From: an uncultured Ruficoccus sp. | GTDB taxonomy: Bacteria > Verrucomicrobiota > Verrucomicrobiia > Opitutales > Cerasicoccaceae | Direction: 5' to 3' | Assembly: GCA_965140785.1 (NCBI GenBank) | Contig: OZ223481.1 | Span: 640,001-704,000, forward strand | DNA: 64,000 bases | Shown here: in pieces, positions 41,704 through 55,610 of the stretch | How positions within the stretch are numbered: the first letter of the stretch is position 1 | Layout: the number at the start of each line of letters is the position of its first letter | Translations under genes and position numbers: made by a program | Notes under the pieces: model-generated | What the model saw: the letters and a program-made list of their open reading frames with translations, nothing else | Databases searched by the model: none | What the model was told of the DNA's origin: nothing

Positions 41704-41965
41704 GGTAGGTGCTGGTTAGAAGTTGGGAAATTGCGAAACCGCCTGAGAAAAGCGTTTTTTAGGCATGAGTCAAGCTTTGCTGAGGGAGAATACGCACCGT
41801 GTAAAAATCTTGTACTCATGAAAAATACCGGAACGGCTGCTCAAGCGGCCCTTTCTGTCCTTTGCGGGGAGGGTTTTATGAGTAATAAGCCCGTTCAGAT
41901 CCCCTACTGATTTTAGGTTTTACTTTTTTTTATTAATTGGATACAAAAAAAGAACAAAAAACAGT

Positions 41966-41992
41966 TAAAGGGCTTGGGAACTTCTCCGATAA
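41966..41992 (+). promoter_or_regulatory. sigma-28 (FliA/WhiG)-type promoter
   Basis: TAAA-N15-TCCGATAA (consensus TAAA-N15-GCCGATAA), ending 24 nt before the ATG; conserved before the paralogue. Confidence 0.65.
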
Positions 41993-42016
41993 GACGACTC
42001 GAACTATTTTATAGAT

Positions 42017-42922
42017 ATGCATACTACGAAATTCGCCATCCTTGCCGGCAGCCTGTCTCTGCTCATGGCTGCCCCCTTCGCATCCGGCGTTACTTACGCT
42101 ACCGATGATTTTGAATCCTATTCCGCTGGCTCTATTAATAATCAAGGCGGAGGTTCCGGCTGGTCCGGAAACTGGGCCGGGGGAGCCGGCCAGAGTATCG
42201 TCGATATGACGGGTAACGAGCTCAGCTACACGGTGAACGGTGGTAACACCATCAGTGGTGGCAACCGTTCCCTCCAGTTGAGTGGGACCAGCGAGATGGC
42301 GGCCAGCCGCGCATTATCCAGCCCGGAGAACGGCACGATCTACATCAGCTACCTGATGCGCGTGACGGGTACGACGATCCAGAACAACGACTTCGCCAGC
42401 ATGTGGCTGAACGAGCCCGGCGTTGCCGCGACGAATCCCGGCCCCTCCACCGGATTCAAGGCCAACAATGGGAACGGCACGGGCACAGAAGACTTCTTTA
42501 TCCGTCCCAACTATGACGGTAACCCCACCCATGCCGGCTATGCCGGAGATGTTGCCATGGATACCACCTATCTGGTGGTGGCCAAGTTCGAAGCCAGCGG
42601 TGGCGCCGGGACCAACTACGACACTTTCAGCCTCTGGATCAATCCCGACGCCTGGGATGAATATAATCCCGATGTGACTTATACCCGCACGAGTGACTGG
42701 GACGAGGTCGGCGTGATCGGCTTCCGTTCGGCCAACCTGAATACGTCCAGCGTCTATTTCGATAACTATTCGGTCACCGACAATTTCGAGGAATCCATTG
42801 GTGGGTTCGCTCCGACTGTGGTGCCCTTTGATCCAGGTTCCGGCCTGGGAATGGCTTTCGTCGGCTGGTTTGCCTGGCGCCGCTTCAAGCGTCGTCTGAG
42901 GGACAAGCAGGCGGCTGCTTAA
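42017..42922 (+). CDS. secreted surface protein with variant PEP-CTERM-like tail (VPFDPG)
   Basis: signal peptide, beta-rich G/S/T/N domain, C-terminal VPFDPGSGLGMAFVGWFAWRRFKRR (motif, TM helix, basic cluster). Confidence 0.85.
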   Translation: MHTTKFAILAGSLSLLMAAPFASGVTYATDDFESYSAGSINNQGGGSGWSGNWAGGAGQSIVDMTGNELSYTVNGGNTISGGNRSLQLSGTSEMAASRALSSPENGTIYISYLMRVTGTTIQNNDFASMWLNEPGVAATNPGPSTGFKANNGNGTGTEDFFIRPNYDGNPTHAGYAGDVAMDTTYLVVAKFEASGGAGTNYDTFSLWINPDAWDEYNPDVTYTRTSDWDEVGVIGFRSANLNTSSVYFDNYSVTDNFEESIGGFAPTVVPFDPGSGLGMAFVGWFAWRRFKRRLRDKQAAA

Positions 42923-42930
42923 ATTTTTAC

Positions 42931-42959
42931 GGGGTCCTCTCCACGGGGGACCCCTTTTT
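42931..42959 (+). terminator. intrinsic terminator
   Basis: GC stem GGGGTCC...GGACCCC followed by TTTTT. Confidence 0.75.
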
Positions 42960-42998
42960 ACGTCTGTCCTCTTCTTAAGCTCTCCTGTTTTACGCCTT

Positions 42999-43727
42999 AT
43001 GTCCTCCAGTGTGCTGTCGCTGCCGTCTGACAATCGGACGTCAACCCGTAGTTTTTTGCGCATTATCGGTTGGGCCCTGCTTTTGCTGGGCCTGATTGAT
43101 TATACTTACATCCTGATCGGGACGGATTGGATGAATCCGGTGGCCGAGCTGCGGACGGGGGGGCGCCTGGCCGAGCACATCGTGGCTCCGCTGCTGGGCT
43201 TGCTCTTCCTTCTGATCCCCGTCGGGGGGGATAAGTTTACCGTGGGCGAGGCCCGCGCACGTGCCCGTTTGGCCCGTTTGAGTCTGCTGCTGGGTATTTT
43301 TAGCCTGGCGCTGGTGCCGTTCATCCTGATCAGCGCCATCCGTATCCATCGCGCCTACGACAAGCAGGTGAGCACCTGGGTGAATCAGCAGGAAGAGCTG
43401 ACCGAGGGAGCGATCAAGAAACTCAACGACAAGCGCAGCCATGAGGAGGTGGAGGCCTTTGTGAGACCGCTTCCATTGGATGAAAACATGTTTTACGAGC
43501 CTGACTTGGAGGTCCTTAAGGAAAACTTGATTGAGAACTTCCACGAGATGAACACCGGTAATATCGAGCGCGCGAAGGCCCAGTTGGGCGCACGTCTGCG
43601 CAGCGTCTGGACGGACGCGGCCAAGTGGATGTTGACCGCCCTCATTGGGGCCGTGTCCTATTGGTTGATCGGGTGGAAAGGGCGCCGCTACGCGCGCTTG
43701 GCTGCCTCCGCCAAGGGGAAGAAGTAA
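42999..43727 (+). CDS. HpsJ-like membrane protein (3 TM, coiled region, 1 TM)
   Basis: LRIIGWALLLLGLID...WMNPVAELRTGGRLAEHIVAPLLGL resembles the HpsJ-family pattern (R.IGYGLL.L...D...FMNP.WE.Q..G.LVE.V.VPL.GL) and topology; recognised from memory, no search run. Confidence 0.65.
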   Translation: MSSSVLSLPSDNRTSTRSFLRIIGWALLLLGLIDYTYILIGTDWMNPVAELRTGGRLAEHIVAPLLGLLFLLIPVGGDKFTVGEARARARLARLSLLLGIFSLALVPFILISAIRIHRAYDKQVSTWVNQQEELTEGAIKKLNDKRSHEEVEAFVRPLPLDENMFYEPDLEVLKENLIENFHEMNTGNIERAKAQLGARLRSVWTDAAKWMLTALIGAVSYWLIGWKGRRYARLAASAKGKK

Positions 43728-43924
43728 AAAACTCTGCTCTCTAAAGAAGGTGGAAGGCCTTATTTCCCCCCTTTTTTAAACAGGAAGGCGAAAAAAAGCG
43801 CCCAGCTCGTCATTTTTGCCGCTGACGTGGCGGCCATAAGGTTATGGCACCCTTTAGGTGCCCTACTGCCTTTTGGTTTTACTCTTTCTTATAAAATGCA
43901 TACAAAAAAATAATAAAATTCTGC

Positions 43925-43951
43925 TAAAGGGCAAAGAAATAGCTCCGATAA
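43925..43951 (+). promoter_or_regulatory. sigma-28 (FliA/WhiG)-type promoter
   Basis: TAAA-GGGCAAAGAAATAGC(15)-TCCGATAA. Confidence 0.65.
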
Positions 43952-43975
43952 GACGAACCGCACCATTTTATAGAT

Positions 43976-44878
43976 ATGCATACCAAGAAATTTGCCATCC
44001 TTGCCGGCAGCCTGTCTCTGCTCATGGCTGCCCCCTTCGCATCCGGTGTTACTTATGCCGTAGATGACTTTGAGTCTTATTCAGTGGGTTCCATCGCTGG
44101 CAATAACGGCGGTACCGGCTGGGCTGGCGCCTGGTCTGGAGCTCCCGGCCAGGGTGTCGTCGACACCTCCTCCAATCCGCTGACCTACACTGTAAACGGC
44201 GGGAACACGCTGACCGGCGGTAACAAGTCGCTCCAACTGACGGGCTCCACCCAGTATGCGGCCTCCCGCGATCTGGCCAGCCCGCAAACCGGCGCGATTT
44301 ACATCAGCTATCTGATGCGCGTGGACGGGACGACGATTCAGGACAACGATTTCGCCAGCATGTGGCTGAACGCCCCCGGCACCGCCGCGAGCAATCCCGG
44401 CCCCTCCACCGGCTTTAAGGCTAACAACGGCGACGGTGCGGGTACCGAAGACTTCTTCATCCGCCCCTATCATGACGGCAACAACGCCGGCTACGCGGGG
44501 GACGTGAACCTCGGCGAAACCTATCTGGTCGTGGCCAAGTTCGAAGCCAGCGGTGCCAACGGGGCCAACTACGACACCTTTAGCCTCTGGGTGAATCCGG
44601 ATGCCTGGGACGAATTTGCCCCGGACGCCACTTATTACGGGGAGAGCTACATCACGCAGCTCAATACGCTGGGCTTCCGCTCGGCCAACCTCGACAATGG
44701 TACCTCCGTCCTGATCGACAACTTCACCACCACGGACAACTTTGAGGAGTCCATCGGTGGATTCAGCCCGACCACGGTCCCCTTCGATCCGGGGGCCGGA
44801 CTTGGGATGGCTTTCGTTGGCTGGTTCGCCTGGCGCCGCTTCAAGCGTCGTTTGAGCGACAAGCAGGCAGCTGCTTAA
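43976..44878 (+). CDS. secreted surface protein with VPFDPG tail, paralogue of 42017-42922
   Basis: near-identical signal peptide and tail (VPFDPGAGLGMAFVGWFAWRRFKRR); alignable along the full length. Confidence 0.85.
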   Translation: MHTKKFAILAGSLSLLMAAPFASGVTYAVDDFESYSVGSIAGNNGGTGWAGAWSGAPGQGVVDTSSNPLTYTVNGGNTLTGGNKSLQLTGSTQYAASRDLASPQTGAIYISYLMRVDGTTIQDNDFASMWLNAPGTAASNPGPSTGFKANNGDGAGTEDFFIRPYHDGNNAGYAGDVNLGETYLVVAKFEASGANGANYDTFSLWVNPDAWDEFAPDATYYGESYITQLNTLGFRSANLDNGTSVLIDNFTTTDNFEESIGGFSPTTVPFDPGAGLGMAFVGWFAWRRFKRRLSDKQAAA

Positions 44879-44886
44879 ATTTTAAG

Positions 44887-44917
44887 AGGGGCCCTCACCA
44901 TGGGGCTCCTTTTTTTT
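44887..44917 (+). terminator. intrinsic terminator
   Basis: AGGGGCCC..GGGCTCCT stem followed by a T-run. Confidence 0.7.
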
Positions 44918-52912: not shown

Positions 52913-54133
52913 TTACTGCTGCGTCAGGCGCAACTGGTAAAAGATCGCCTGGCCCGGAGCGGGGGCGTCGGTTTCGCTCCAGCGATACAGCGTGTGTGCA
53001 TCGCTGCTGCCGAGGGTTTCCACGCCTGCGCTCCAGGCAGAGGAGCCGGTCTTGGTCGCGACTTCGGACCAGGTTCCGGCGGTCAAATCATACGTGCGCC
53101 AAATGGCGTAGGTAACGTCCGGGCGGGCGGGTTCGGGCAGTTCGAGCTGGAAGCCGGGGACGCCGCCATCGCTTACGGCGCTGGGCAGGCCACTGCCGGT
53201 TGAGCCGTCGTCGATGCCGAGCGCGTAGCGGACGCCGTTGGGCAGGGCGGCGGGCGTGGTGCTTTCGGCGAATCCGATGCCGGTGAGGCCGTCGGCCCAG
53301 AGCCAGTTGTCATACTTTTCCACGACAACGGTCGTCATGCGAAAGGTGACGGCGTAGTCACCCGGCTGGGTGAAAGCCCAGTTGCAGTGATGGTGCCAGC
53401 CGGCGGCGAGGTAGATGCAGTCGTCCGCGTCGATGCCATCGGAGGTGGCCATGTAAACACTCGGGGGAGCGCCGGCGTTGCCAAAGTTGAAGAGCGTGAA
53501 CTCGCCGCCCGTGGGGCCGGTCACCTTTACCAGTTCGAGGCGAACGAATTTATCGGTACTGCCCGCGCCGATGGCGGGGGCTCCGGGGTTCCAGGGGACC
53601 AGTTGCGGGTCTTCCTCGGAATCATCGGCAACACGGAGGCCGGGATAAATCCAGGTTTGGCCCGGAACTACGTCTTGTTGGACAATCCAGAACTTTTGCC
53701 CGACTTCGGCTCCGATGAAGCCGAAGCCGGCATCGATGCTCGCCTGCCCCATGATCTGCCCGCAAGCCTCGTTGAAGTACAGGTAGGCTTCGTCCGGGGT
53801 GTAGTACAGGTCGTCTGCCGGGTTGTCCGGCTCTGAGAGGTTGGCCACGGCGATGAACGGGTTGCCCGCGCCGCCGACGTAGGAAATATTCAGGTCCACA
53901 TGCAGGCCGTCCAGCTTTTCCCGCCCGGCCTGCTCGGTCGTAACGCCGAAGTAAAAGGTATGCTCGGAACTGGTTACGGTCAGGCCTTGGGCTTGCGCGT
54001 ATCCAAAGCTGGATACAATCATGCCGATTGTGAGCGCCAACCGTCCGATCATTCCGCGCAGGTGCGAAAACCGGGAGCGGCGAGGGCCGGTGACGCGATG
54101 GGGAGAGCGGTGGATGTCGGTGGACGTGTTCAT
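52913..54133 (-). CDS. secreted protein with TIGR03769/choice-of-anchor-M-like domain and Verrucomicrobia-type C-terminal domain
   Basis: LHVDL, GFIGAEVGQKFWIVQQ, LVKVTGP.GGEF.L, WHHHCNWAFTQPGDYAVTF; C-terminus TYAIWRTYDL..GTW...IFYQLRL; true start may be about 54052. Confidence 0.75.
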   Translation of the reverse strand: MNTSTDIHRSPHRVTGPRRSRFSHLRGMIGRLALTIGMIVSSFGYAQAQGLTVTSSEHTFYFGVTTEQAGREKLDGLHVDLNISYVGGAGNPFIAVANLSEPDNPADDLYYTPDEAYLYFNEACGQIMGQASIDAGFGFIGAEVGQKFWIVQQDVVPGQTWIYPGLRVADDSEEDPQLVPWNPGAPAIGAGSTDKFVRLELVKVTGPTGGEFTLFNFGNAGAPPSVYMATSDGIDADDCIYLAAGWHHHCNWAFTQPGDYAVTFRMTTVVVEKYDNWLWADGLTGIGFAESTTPAALPNGVRYALGIDDGSTGSGLPSAVSDGGVPGFQLELPEPARPDVTYAIWRTYDLTAGTWSEVATKTGSSAWSAGVETLGSSDAHTLYRWSETDAPAPGQAIFYQLRLTQQ

Positions 54134-54834
54134 CGTTGCGGGGGCTGGGCTGGGTTGACGCCGCGGGCGAAAATTTCTTTAAGTTTACTGGCGAGCATAT
54201 AGTCCACGTGACCGTCGGCGTAGAGGTAGTTGGCCCCGCCGCGGTGGCGGTCGGGCTGGATGTCCAGCCGCGCGTAGGCGTAGCCGTTAGCCCCGGTCCA
54301 GGTGCGCGAGTGGGTGTGGTCGGAGTTGACAGTGACTGGGCGGTTGTCGGCACCGGTGAAGACCGTGATTGTGCGGGCGGGATTGGGCAGCTGCATGAGA
54401 TTGGTATAGTCCTCGTTGACTTCAAACTGGCCGGTGGCGAAGTTGAAGCTCTTGCTGGTCACGGCCACGTACTCGTTCATGACGTAGCTGGAGGAGCCTT
54501 TTTCGAGGCGCTCGTCAGCCTTCGGGTCGCCGGGGCAGATGCGGATCGCATCCACGTTGCCGGTGTAGGGGGCGAGGGTTTGAATCCACGACTTGCTGGC
54601 GGCGGTGTCATGGGTGGTCTTCGGGAACTGACCGCGATTGGCTTGGCAAAACAGCGTGATACCGGTGCCGATTTGGCGCAGGTTGGAGGCGCACTGGGTC
54701 TGACGGGCCATGTCCCGGGAGGAGGACAGTCCGGCATGAACGAGGCAGGCCAGCACCGCCAAAATGGCAATGCCGGCCAGCAATTCGACCAGGCTGAAGG
54801 CGCCTGGTCGGTTTTTACTCAAGCCACTGTGCAT
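54130..54834 (-). CDS. prepilin-type N-terminal cleavage/methylation protein with H-X9-DG domain
   Basis: AFSLVELLAGIAILAVLA, QCASNLRQIG, RHRGGANYLYADGHV. Confidence 0.92.
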   Translation of the reverse strand: MHSGLSKNRPGAFSLVELLAGIAILAVLACLVHAGLSSSRDMARQTQCASNLRQIGTGITLFCQANRGQFPKTTHDTAASKSWIQTLAPYTGNVDAIRICPGDPKADERLEKGSSSYVMNEYVAVTSKSFNFATGQFEVNEDYTNLMQLPNPARTITVFTGADNRPVTVNSDHTHSRTWTGANGYAYARLDIQPDRHRGGANYLYADGHVDYMLASKLKEIFARGVNPAQPPQR

Positions 54835-54838
54835 CGGT

Positions 54839-55610
54839 TCAGGTCAACGATCGATTTACGGGGCGTGAGCCGCGAGCGCCGAAGCGACGGCGCAGCAGGA
54901 CCACCCCGAGGCAGGCGGCCCCGGCCATGGCGGCATAGGTGGACGGTTCGGGCACGACATTAAAGGTGTAGGTGGCGGTATCGCTTTGCAGGATGCCCTC
55001 GATGGTGCCGGTCACCGTGAACTCCAGCTCATAGACGCCCGCCTCGGTGAAGCCCCAGTTGACGTGCTGGTGACCGGAAATGCCGAGGTCCAGCGTGATG
55101 GCGTCGGCGGCGCTGATGCCGTCGGCGGTGCTCATGAAAAAGGTCGGCGTGAAGCCGCCCACCCAAACCGAGAATTCGCCTGAGGCGGGCATGTTTGCCC
55201 CTACCAGGGTGAGCGTGAGGGTATTGTCGTCGAAAGTTCCGAGCGTGATTTCCTCGCCGCCGACTCCGAGGTACGGCGCGTTCAGGTCCGCCGCGCCGCC
55301 TGCCCCGAGGTTGCTATCGGGCAGGTACCAGTAGTTTCTCACCCGCGCTGACACCGAGCGGGTCCCAGGCGCTGCCGCTGGGGCGGCCGCCGTTGCTATT
55401 GACAAAGGCGTAGCTGCTTTGCGGCACGACGATGACGGCCTCGTCGGGCGCGTATTCGGTTTCGGTGGATTCGTCGTGGACGTGCAGCTCCAGTTCGGTG
55501 CCTTCGCCCAGGCCGAGATCCATGTGCCCGGAGGTGAGGTTGACCGCTCCCTGAGAGATGCTGACAGAAATAAGGGCGCCCAGCCCGATCAGTAAGGTAG
55601 ATGACTTCAT
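54839..55610 (-). CDS. PEP-CTERM protein with TIGR03769-like domain; +1 frameshift at about 55336
   Basis: signal peptide, GHMDLGL, LHVHDE, YWYLP, GHQHVNWGFTEAGVYELEF, VPEPSTYAAMAGAACLGVVLLRRR; GAGAAACTAC restores to GAG AAC TAC. Confidence 0.85.

Follow-up and report, generated by a model that had tools for sequence, protein, structure and literature searches.

The closest described relative of this locus is the cyanoexosortase A system (TIGR03763, or CrtA; TIGR04153; NF050013; and NF050011), three of whose gene families are common to cyanobacteria and Ruficoccus. Among the cyanobacterial crtA loci that we fetched, hpsJ is a neighbor of the gene in 10 of 16 and 12 of 15, and in one genome (G729), a PFE gene, hpsJ, and a fused crtA lie in a row. 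We found no paper on the link between PFE-CTERM, HpsJ-like A, and CrtA, whose parts are catalogued as NCBIfam models, nor any on the set of PF tail, HpsJ, and CrtA outside the cyanobacteria. In the cyanoexosortase B system of Nostoc punctiforme, which the available portion of its description links to polysaccharide adhesion (PMC12188702), secreted proteins with tails of the same layout (a motif, a transmembrane helix, and a basic cluster) are likewise handled by an exosortase. However, CrtB is a separate branch of the exosortase tree and, according to that portion, its substrates carry PEP; PFE, CrtA, and hpsJ do not occur in the main text. The VPDSG-CTERM/XrtC and VPLPA-CTERM/XrtD systems also combine a minority tail with its own exosortase subfamily, beside a large set of PEP-CTERM proteins (accessible part of bioRxiv 10.1101/2023.06.07.544157), but the motif and the enzyme branch in Ruficoccus are different, and a third family, HpsJ, travels with the pair.

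The initial annotation of 64,000 nucleotides of DNA from an uncultured Ruficoccus (the window) suggested a cyanobacteria-like dedicated sorting subsystem in a verrucomicrobium. The HpsJ score, the non-PEP tails, and the linkage all favor this idea. Ruficoccus likely has a small dedicated export route built from a three-part set (a PF-type tag, an HpsJ-like protein, and a CrtA-like protease) that is otherwise known from cyanobacteria. Ruficoccus belongs to the Verrucomicrobiota, and its version differs from the cyanoexosortase A system in several ways: the enzyme scores below the family's cut-off and seems to be without the associated domain; there are three copies of hpsJ, two of them lying with substrates far from crtA; the VPFDPG variant of the tail is missed by NF050011; and there are no polysaccharide genes beside crtA.

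The VPFDPG proteins and their tails

On the plus strand, the window encodes two PF-CTERM proteins of 301 and 300 amino acids (copy 1, 42017-42922; copy 2, 43976-44878) on either side of a 242-amino-acid HpsJ-like A membrane protein (42999-43727). As annotated, both copies end in VPFDPG, a transmembrane helix, and a basic cluster, and begin with a signal peptide (read off the sequence, without a predictor). The two proteins are identical at 223 of 302 positions overall, at 23 of 24 in the signal segment, and at 164 of 236 in the passenger segment (pS = 0.57, pN = 0.20). In the tails (amino acids 270-298 of copy 1, 42824-42910; amino acids 269-297 of copy 2, 44780-44866), 27 of 29 positions are identical, and since pS is 0.46 while pN is 0.03, the tail is kept by selection. 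Across four species, 24-28 of the 29 positions are identical (pS = 0.38-0.69), and purifying selection on the tail is strong. So, the description of the tail as nearly invariant holds up, while the reported divergence of the passenger amounts to just 69% identity.

In three congeners, this site holds hpsJ with a single VPFDPG gene, and the pair seen here thus arose by local duplication; among the genomes compared, the two-copy layout is found in this genome only. Copy 2 is nearer to the congeners' single-copy orthologues (its passenger matches that of G229 at 199 of 237 positions, versus 167 of 236 for copy 1), and copy 1 is the faster-diverging of the two. In alignments, the AT-rich region 5' of copy 1 (41905-42016, plus strand), which is likely a promoter, is repeated 5' of copy 2 (43865-43975, plus strand) and partly kept in three congeners; a search for a sigma-70 consensus promoter gave no match. 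A terminator-like hairpin of 10 pairs (7 of them G-C) with a T run lies in the gap between copy 1 and hpsJ (42931-42954, plus strand) and shows no conservation in the three congeners compared; a hairpin search found another 3' of copy 2 (44893-44905, plus strand). GC3 is lower in the three genes (0.71-0.78) than in yidC (0.89), but since yidC is the sole comparison gene, we gave this difference no weight. Contigs from run X1 span all 30 bins of the window (a short one fits two places), and no differences are listed for them, but X1 is possibly the source sample and hence no independent confirmation of the sequence.

The initial annotation put forward a candidate new sorting module. Its tails, though, represent no new kind of sorting signal: they are divergent PFE-CTERM-type signals. 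Both fall below the cut-off of 24 bits for NF050011 (PFE-CTERM), at 16.3 bits for copy 1 and 12.8 bits for copy 2. A custom PF model gives them 24.0 bits (E = 1.7e-5) and 13.1 bits (E = 0.046), respectively, and with no VPFDPG tails in its training, they rank second and third among 11,287 C-termini. Along with 16 other Opitutales tails, they align without gaps, with the [VI]PF motif, the helix, and the basic cluster in register, and the P, F, and G are invariant in 21 of 21 aligned tails. As the initial annotation had it, the tails are distinct from PEP-CTERM: models TIGR02595 and PF07589 gave no match up to E = 1 in NCBIfam or Pfam, and a model built on 86 PEP tails from this same genome gave at most 5.3 bits (for copy 1). 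A canonical VPEP tail does occur elsewhere in the window, as reported, on a PEP-CTERM protein at 54839-55405 on the minus strand (TIGR02595, 24.6 bits; cut-off 16). The genome's PF-tailed set is small, with 2-3 proteins versus about 100 PEP-CTERM proteins. The third PF-tailed protein is encoded directly upstream of an hpsJ and passes NF050011 (32 bits).

The passenger is a jelly-roll domain. By fold, it matches X122 domains, calreticulin, and lectin/lyase sandwiches, with a TM of about 0.5 and 10-17% identity, and its neighbors in the atlas are Verrucomicrobiota PEP-CTERM clusters. It is homologous to the passengers of verrucomicrobial PEP-CTERM proteins with ConA-like or jelly-roll domains, and homologues carry ordinary IPES, VPEP, and TPEP tails, but in Ruficoccus the tail is swapped for the PF type. 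We infer that native passenger domains acquired PF tails by tail exchange.

HpsJ and a CrtA-like exosortase

The protein between the two copies had been described as HpsJ-like, with four transmembrane segments and no cysteine. It scores 147.5 bits against NF050013 (HpsJ_like_A, cut-off 140) and also passes the cut-off for HpsJ_fam (NCBIfam), but it scores just 42.5 bits against NF050014 (HpsJ proper, hormogonium polysaccharide; cut-off 260). It has 0 cysteines. Three segments have a mean hydropathy above 1.5; the fourth, near 205-227, is weaker and was read by eye. The structure model is all-helical (pLDDT 95), and a fold search with it found generic helical bundles only (best Z = 12.5). Two of the genome's three hpsJ paralogues pass NF050013: this one and the one on contig C43 (156.7 bits). 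The paralogue adjacent to crtA scores 68.7 bits, below the cut-off of 140.

No exosortase was found in the window, as stated originally. The candidate protease (G000:C10:496349-497317) is encoded on the same contig, 185 kb away, directly behind a second hpsJ paralogue. Its best match among 20 models is TIGR03763 (cyanoexosortase A), with 77.4 bits (below the cut-off of 150), and the next model gives 42.9 bits; XrtD gives 28.6 bits and XrtC has no match. The Cys-Arg-His triad of exosortases (as given in the part of bioRxiv 10.1101/2023.06.07.544157 available to us) is present as Cys189, Arg234, and His252 and is invariant in 32 of 32 aligned rows. The Ruficoccus enzyme stops just past the last helix, and TIGR04153, the associated domain or protein, has no match in this genome (91% complete, in a search with no control match) or in G048 or G215, so the enzyme could be partly degenerate. 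The enzymes of G012 and G005 are fused to a TIGR04153-like domain (below the cut-off), and the cyanobacterial scan found such fusions in G729 and G634. Predicting a complex between the window's HpsJ and the CrtA-like enzyme gave no answer (score 0.01).

Among 251 Opitutales genomes, HpsJ-like genes are found in 8, PFE-CTERM proteins above the cut-off are found in the same 8, and in 8 of 8, hpsJ lies directly upstream of a CrtA-like gene. Five of these carriers are from one genus, so that about 3-4 independent lineages underlie the co-occurrence. Of 26 hpsJ matches, 14 are behind a PF-tail gene, 8 are before crtA, and 4 are neither. So, the expected linkage is conserved and comes with a CrtA-like exosortase in this genome and in every carrier, though the flanking pair does not recur. 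While no exosortase in the 251 genomes reaches the TIGR03763 cut-off, a profile from 16 cyanobacterial CrtA only gives 74-200 bits for the 8 and at most 52 bits for 48 other Opitutales exosortases. A further 11 genomes, all lacking hpsJ, also have TIGR03763 matches, which we do not count as CrtA-like: these are long enzymes with at most 52 bits, and the 10 that were placed in the tree are all outside the branch. PFE tails and hpsJ are both absent from five genomes of the same family, although each has 2-7 exosortase matches. The exosortase set leaves out 5 loci missed by the profiles, 3 partial or over-long rows, and a frameshifted gene on C26.

In 121 genomes of the cyanobacterial phylum, CrtA is found in 21 and HpsJ_A in 21, with 20 in common. 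CrtA is present in 5 of 6 PFE-bearing genomes, but 16 of 21 CrtA-bearing genomes have no PFE tail, so CrtA and HpsJ presumably serve other tails too. A rule that PFE occurs only with low-scoring CrtA (5/7 versus 0/14 genomes) was drawn up post hoc, and L099, with a 254-bit CrtA and a PFE match beside it, contradicts it. Of 72,556 plasmid records, one matched, and it was cyanobacterial.

In the exosortase tree, 12 Opitutales-type CrtA share a single branch with 33 from cyanobacteria (97/87), which places the enzyme with cyanoexosortase A. A further tree also groups them (98 SH-aLRT). (CrtC was left out of these trees, and the AU tests omitted another 17-18 rows.) Grouping the CrtA-like enzymes with native Opitutales exosortases was rejected by the AU test (p-AU = 0.026) but kept by the SH test (p = 0.18). 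An earlier AU test kept this grouping (p = 0.495), but the free tree that it used proved suboptimal, and it is uninformative. Whether or not cyanobacterial CrtA is kept as a single clade, the resulting trees are indistinguishable (p-AU = 0.70 and 0.38). In the unrooted HpsJ tree, the Opitutales rows lie outside a 123-row group, whose 2 named rows are both cyanobacterial. We infer that the gene set moved between Opitutales and cyanobacteria, with either direction possible.

Possible roles of the three components

Based on gene content, family scores, conserved linkage, co-occurrence, tree position, and predicted folds, the VPFDPG proteins are probably substrates of the CrtA-like protease, and the HpsJ-like protein is probably an accessory membrane component of the route. 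We propose that Sec exports the PF-CTERM protein and that, once the signal peptide is removed, the C-terminal helix would keep the protein tethered. The CrtA-like enzyme, rather than the housekeeping exosortase (C34:164652-165779), would read [VI]PF-x6-G and cut at or near the motif. The jelly-roll domain would be handed to some acceptor and reach the surface or matrix, and there it would bind glycan. HpsJ is predicted to form a membrane bundle of four helices with a long hairpin in the periplasm. It would help to present the tail or to link the reaction with the acceptor, and it may substitute for the CrtA-associated domain that is apparently missing from the Ruficoccus enzymes.

HpsJ paralogues might also be substrate-specific adaptors, each reading the tail encoded next to it and passing the protein to one shared CrtA-like enzyme. 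Each Ruficoccus genome has three hpsJ genes, two behind PF-tail genes and one before crtA, and the paralogues branch apart from one another, every branch going with a conserved tail type of its own. Furthermore, the window-type HpsJ, which accompanies the deviant tail, lacks two near-invariant residues, Pro41 (present in 131 of 143 rows) and Trp49 (present in 136 of them), while the orthologue at the same site in G215 has both, beside a more ordinary IPFNVNP tail. One further HpsJ, P0072, is likewise without both residues. But this joint change is a single evolutionary event (a metagenome search for a second case found 2 loci, both with PEP tails), and hpsJ is absent from the surrounding 1.5 kb or so for 3 of 14 Ruficoccus PF-tail genes and for most of those in G005 and G012. 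We view adaptors as possible but lean against them. The broader version, in which HpsJ-family adaptors set exosortase specificity and one stripped-down CrtA-like enzyme, with no periplasmic partner domain, serves several tails via co-evolving paralogues, we find rather doubtful. If adaptors were confirmed, they would be the first function for HpsJ and a logic that is undescribed for sortase-like systems.

It seems quite unlikely that the housekeeping exosortase for PEP-CTERM proteins cuts the PF tails while the linked hpsJ and crtA act elsewhere, such as on polysaccharide. The tail layout, which PEP-CTERM shares, and the PEP-type tails of passenger homologues would fit, deletion of hpsJ is reported to alter the composition of Nostoc hormogonium polysaccharide (available part of PMC5702739), and nucleotide-sugar or Wzc-type genes adjoin the operon in G012 and cyanobacterial L101. 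However, PF tails were not found in the 243 of 251 genomes without hpsJ (3 matches were below the cut-off; of 2 weak ones rejected, one is an ordinary IPEP tail and one matches across a stop), and the Ruficoccus hpsJ-crtA pair sits among housekeeping genes, with no sugar or polysaccharide genes. A decaying remnant, with the tail now an uncleaved inner-membrane anchor, would explain the apparent lack of the associated domain and the drift of tail and HpsJ from the family consensus, but it is very improbable given the triad (intact in 12 of 12 rows), the selection on the tail and its invariant residues, and the retention of all three parts in 5 of 5 Ruficoccus genomes.

A dedicated route via the CrtA-like enzyme would mean that a system named for cyanobacteria reaches another phylum, with members in Opitutales that NF050011 and TIGR03763 overlook and with apparent tail exchange on native passenger domains. 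With 2-3 PF-tailed proteins, three hpsJ genes, and one CrtA-like enzyme, in a genus that has named isolates, Ruficoccus is a minimal case for how substrates are assigned among several exosortases and for the role of HpsJ.

Tailed paralogues and their HpsJ-like neighbor

All three ORFs lie where the initial annotation placed them, on the + strand: PF-CTERM copy 1 (42017–42922), the HpsJ-like middle ORF (42999–43727), and PF-CTERM copy 2 (43976–44878). They are flanked by rnpA-yidD-yidC on one side and a type II dehydroquinase gene on the other. The two copies are 74% identical. Their passenger domains match at 164 of 236 positions (pS 0.57, pN 0.20). Their 29-residue tails match at 27 of 29, with pS of 0.46 and pN of 0.03, so the tail is under selection and is not a fresh copy. 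Because three congeners and another Opitutales genome (G215) carry a single PF gene with hpsJ at the same rnpA-yidC site, we consider the second window copy to be a duplication. It is seen in this genome only, and it also took in the upstream region and hairpin. Relative to the orthologues, copy 2 is closer and copy 1 is faster-changing. Elsewhere in the window (52913–55405, - strand), a protein with a VPEP tail and a choice-of-anchor M domain precedes a prepilin-like ORF and another surface protein.

The tails were said to differ from ordinary PEP-CTERM, and indeed no PEP-CTERM model matches them; against PFE-CTERM (NF050011) they score 16.3 and 12.8, below the cut-off of 24. We also built a model from 18 PF tails of other genomes, excluding VPFDPG tails, and ran it on 11,287 C-termini. 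A protein on contig C43 ranked first (39.3 bits) and the window copies ranked second (24.0 bits) and third (13.1 bits; with E = 0.046, this match is not significant). The window tails align without gaps to the other Opitutales PF tails, and the proline, the phenylalanine, and a downstream glycine are invariant in 21 of 21. Judging by sequence, the window tails are divergent PFE-type tails. Ordinary tails are abundant in this genome (85 VPEP or IPEP tails by motif scan; 98 C-termini match a PEP model at E below 1e-3).

The middle ORF's proposed resemblance to HpsJ is confirmed by HpsJ_like_A (NF050013; 147.5, cut-off 140) and HpsJ_fam (102.9, cut-off 60); it does not reach the cut-off for HpsJ proper. 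As had been noted, its product has no cysteine. Its structure prediction (pLDDT 95) shows four long helical segments, and under the positive-inside rule, a short TM1–TM2 loop and a long TM3–TM4 hairpin would face the periplasm. Homologs at 72% and 66% identity are from Ruficoccus, according to their sources, and one is already auto-named "HpsJ-like protein, cyanoexosortase A-associated". Separately, five proteins of 441–783 amino acids (P0026, P0027, P0030, P0048, and P0084) contain an HpsJ-like stretch, and four of them have two or three such stretches each; these may be tandem or fused members of the family.

A cyanoexosortase A-like enzyme and its distribution

The genome has three exosortase loci and three hpsJ genes. 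One hpsJ (C43:41652–42446) comes after a protein above the PFE-CTERM cut-off (32 bits). Another (C10:497471–498223) directly precedes an exosortase gene (C10:496349–497317) whose best of 20 models is cyanoexosortase A (CrtA; 77.4 bits, runner-up 42.9). In this CrtA-like enzyme, Cys189, Arg234, and His252 are invariant; Cys-Arg-His is described as the suspected exosortase triad in bioRxiv 10.1101/2023.06.07.544157. The protein ends immediately after its last helix. Integrase-like and terminase-like ORFs (names read off the sequence) adjoin a putative tRNA-Glu just past purC (C10:489690–493680), 3 kb from the crtA-like gene with two housekeeping genes in between; G011 and G094 likewise have integrase-like ORFs after purC. 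The third exosortase gene (C26:28113–29752, - strand) is split by a frameshift, and its two pieces share 69% and 76% identity with an intact 541-amino-acid enzyme from G011; it is either a pseudogene or an assembly error.

HpsJ_like_A matches occur in 8 of the order's 251 genomes, and PFE-CTERM matches above the cut-off occur in the same 8 (3 others have sub-cut-off matches). Five of these carriers belong to one genus, one to a sister genus, and two to other families. In all eight, hpsJ is directly upstream of the CrtA-like gene (in G215 this gene fell below the E-value limit of the order-wide scan, but CrtA is nonetheless its best model). In a phylum sample, matches were found in 3 of 401 genomes, all Ruficoccus. 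Five genomes of the same family, each with 2–7 exosortase matches, have neither hpsJ nor PF tails. A tail model derived from the carriers, which is circular for the carriers themselves, gave just 2 weak matches beyond them, both noise. By our count of neighborhoods, 14 of the 26 hpsJ matches lie after a PF-tail gene and 8 lie before crtA, which leaves 4 with neither arrangement. In G215 (C37:1240661–1243236), a PF-tail gene and the hpsJ-crtA operon converge; at no other Opitutales locus did we see all three parts together. In G012 (C53), the genes downstream of hpsJ and a fused crtA include nucleotide-sugar aminotransferase and epimerase genes, an arrangement usual for exosortase-polysaccharide loci.

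Relation to cyanobacterial systems

Against a profile of 16 cyanobacterial CrtA proteins, the 8 hpsJ-linked enzymes score 74–200 bits and 48 other Opitutales exosortases score at most 52. The hpsJ-linked enzymes join cyanobacterial CrtA with support of 98 in one tree and 97/87 in another, which includes long branches and has an unresolved base. Grouping them with native Opitutales enzymes instead was not rejected in a first AU test (whose free tree was poor); in a second, AU rejects this grouping (p = 0.026) and SH does not (p = 0.18). The sequences point to a CrtA-like branch shared by Opitutales and cyanobacteria, and the donor may lie on either side. In G012 and G005 the enzyme carries a fused CrtA-associated domain, as it does in G729 and G634 from the cyanobacterial phylum.

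In cyanobacterial loci, hpsJ adjoins crtA in 10 of 16 cases in one set and 12 of 15 in another. Across 121 cyanobacterial-phylum genomes, 21 have CrtA and 21 have HpsJ_A, with 20 having both; 6 have PFE tails, 5 of these together with CrtA. HpsJ and CrtA thus nearly coincide, with PFE tails as a subset. In G609, G634, G652, G711, and G729, PFE tails go with CrtA lineages that fall outside the canonical sub-branch of 13 rows, which suggests a CrtA subtype serving PFE tails; in G713 the single PFE match is in a 50-amino-acid frame, and CrtA has no match at 1e-25.

Proposed roles

By analogy to the CrtB model from Nostoc (PMC12188702), the PF-tailed protein would be exported by Sec and tethered by its tail; the CrtA-like enzyme would then cleave the tail, and the protein would be placed on the surface or in the matrix. 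In that model, cleavage itself is inferred rather than observed.

Most likely, HpsJ is an accessory of the CrtA-like route. It might instead be a one-to-one adaptor for each substrate; against this, hpsJ is missing from the vicinity of 3 of 14 Ruficoccus PF genes and of most PF genes in G005 and G012. Window-type HpsJ lacks Pro41 (present in 131 of 143 rows) and Trp49 (136 of 143), two positions of the predicted periplasmic loop. Its partner tail is the deviant one; the G215 ortholog keeps both residues and its tail is more ordinary. This correlated change, a single event, is a lead on HpsJ's role. A second lead comes from PMC5702739, which cites others for a change in polysaccharide composition when hpsJ is deleted; PMC10581220 names hpsJ solely within a table.

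The passenger is predicted to be an all-beta sandwich (pLDDT 83), with matches to X122, calreticulin, lectin, and lyase jelly rolls at TM of about 0.5; its neighbors in the atlas are Verrucomicrobiota PEP-CTERM clusters. Homologs carry IPES, TPEP, or VPEP tails in G000 (the window's genome), G215, and G011 and on two metagenome contigs; a native passenger has thus had its tail exchanged. Serine and threonine make up 19–20% of the mature part. Going by the fold, we guess that the passenger may bind a glycan.

Our literature searches found no "PFE-CTERM", no main-text passage on "cyanoexosortase A", and nothing combining exosortases, horizontal gene transfer, cyanobacteria, and Opitut-; subscription papers, supplements, the 2012 exosortase survey, and NCBIfam comment texts may name members of this kind.

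The cyanobacteria-like sorting subsystem originally suggested holds for genes and homology: the Ruficoccus sorting module is real at the gene level, and its function is predicted. It is a variant of a catalogued system, occurring outside cyanobacteria. Compared to the cyanobacterial system, its enzyme is shortened, its hpsJ genes are multiplied and lie beside substrates, and its tail is missed by current models.
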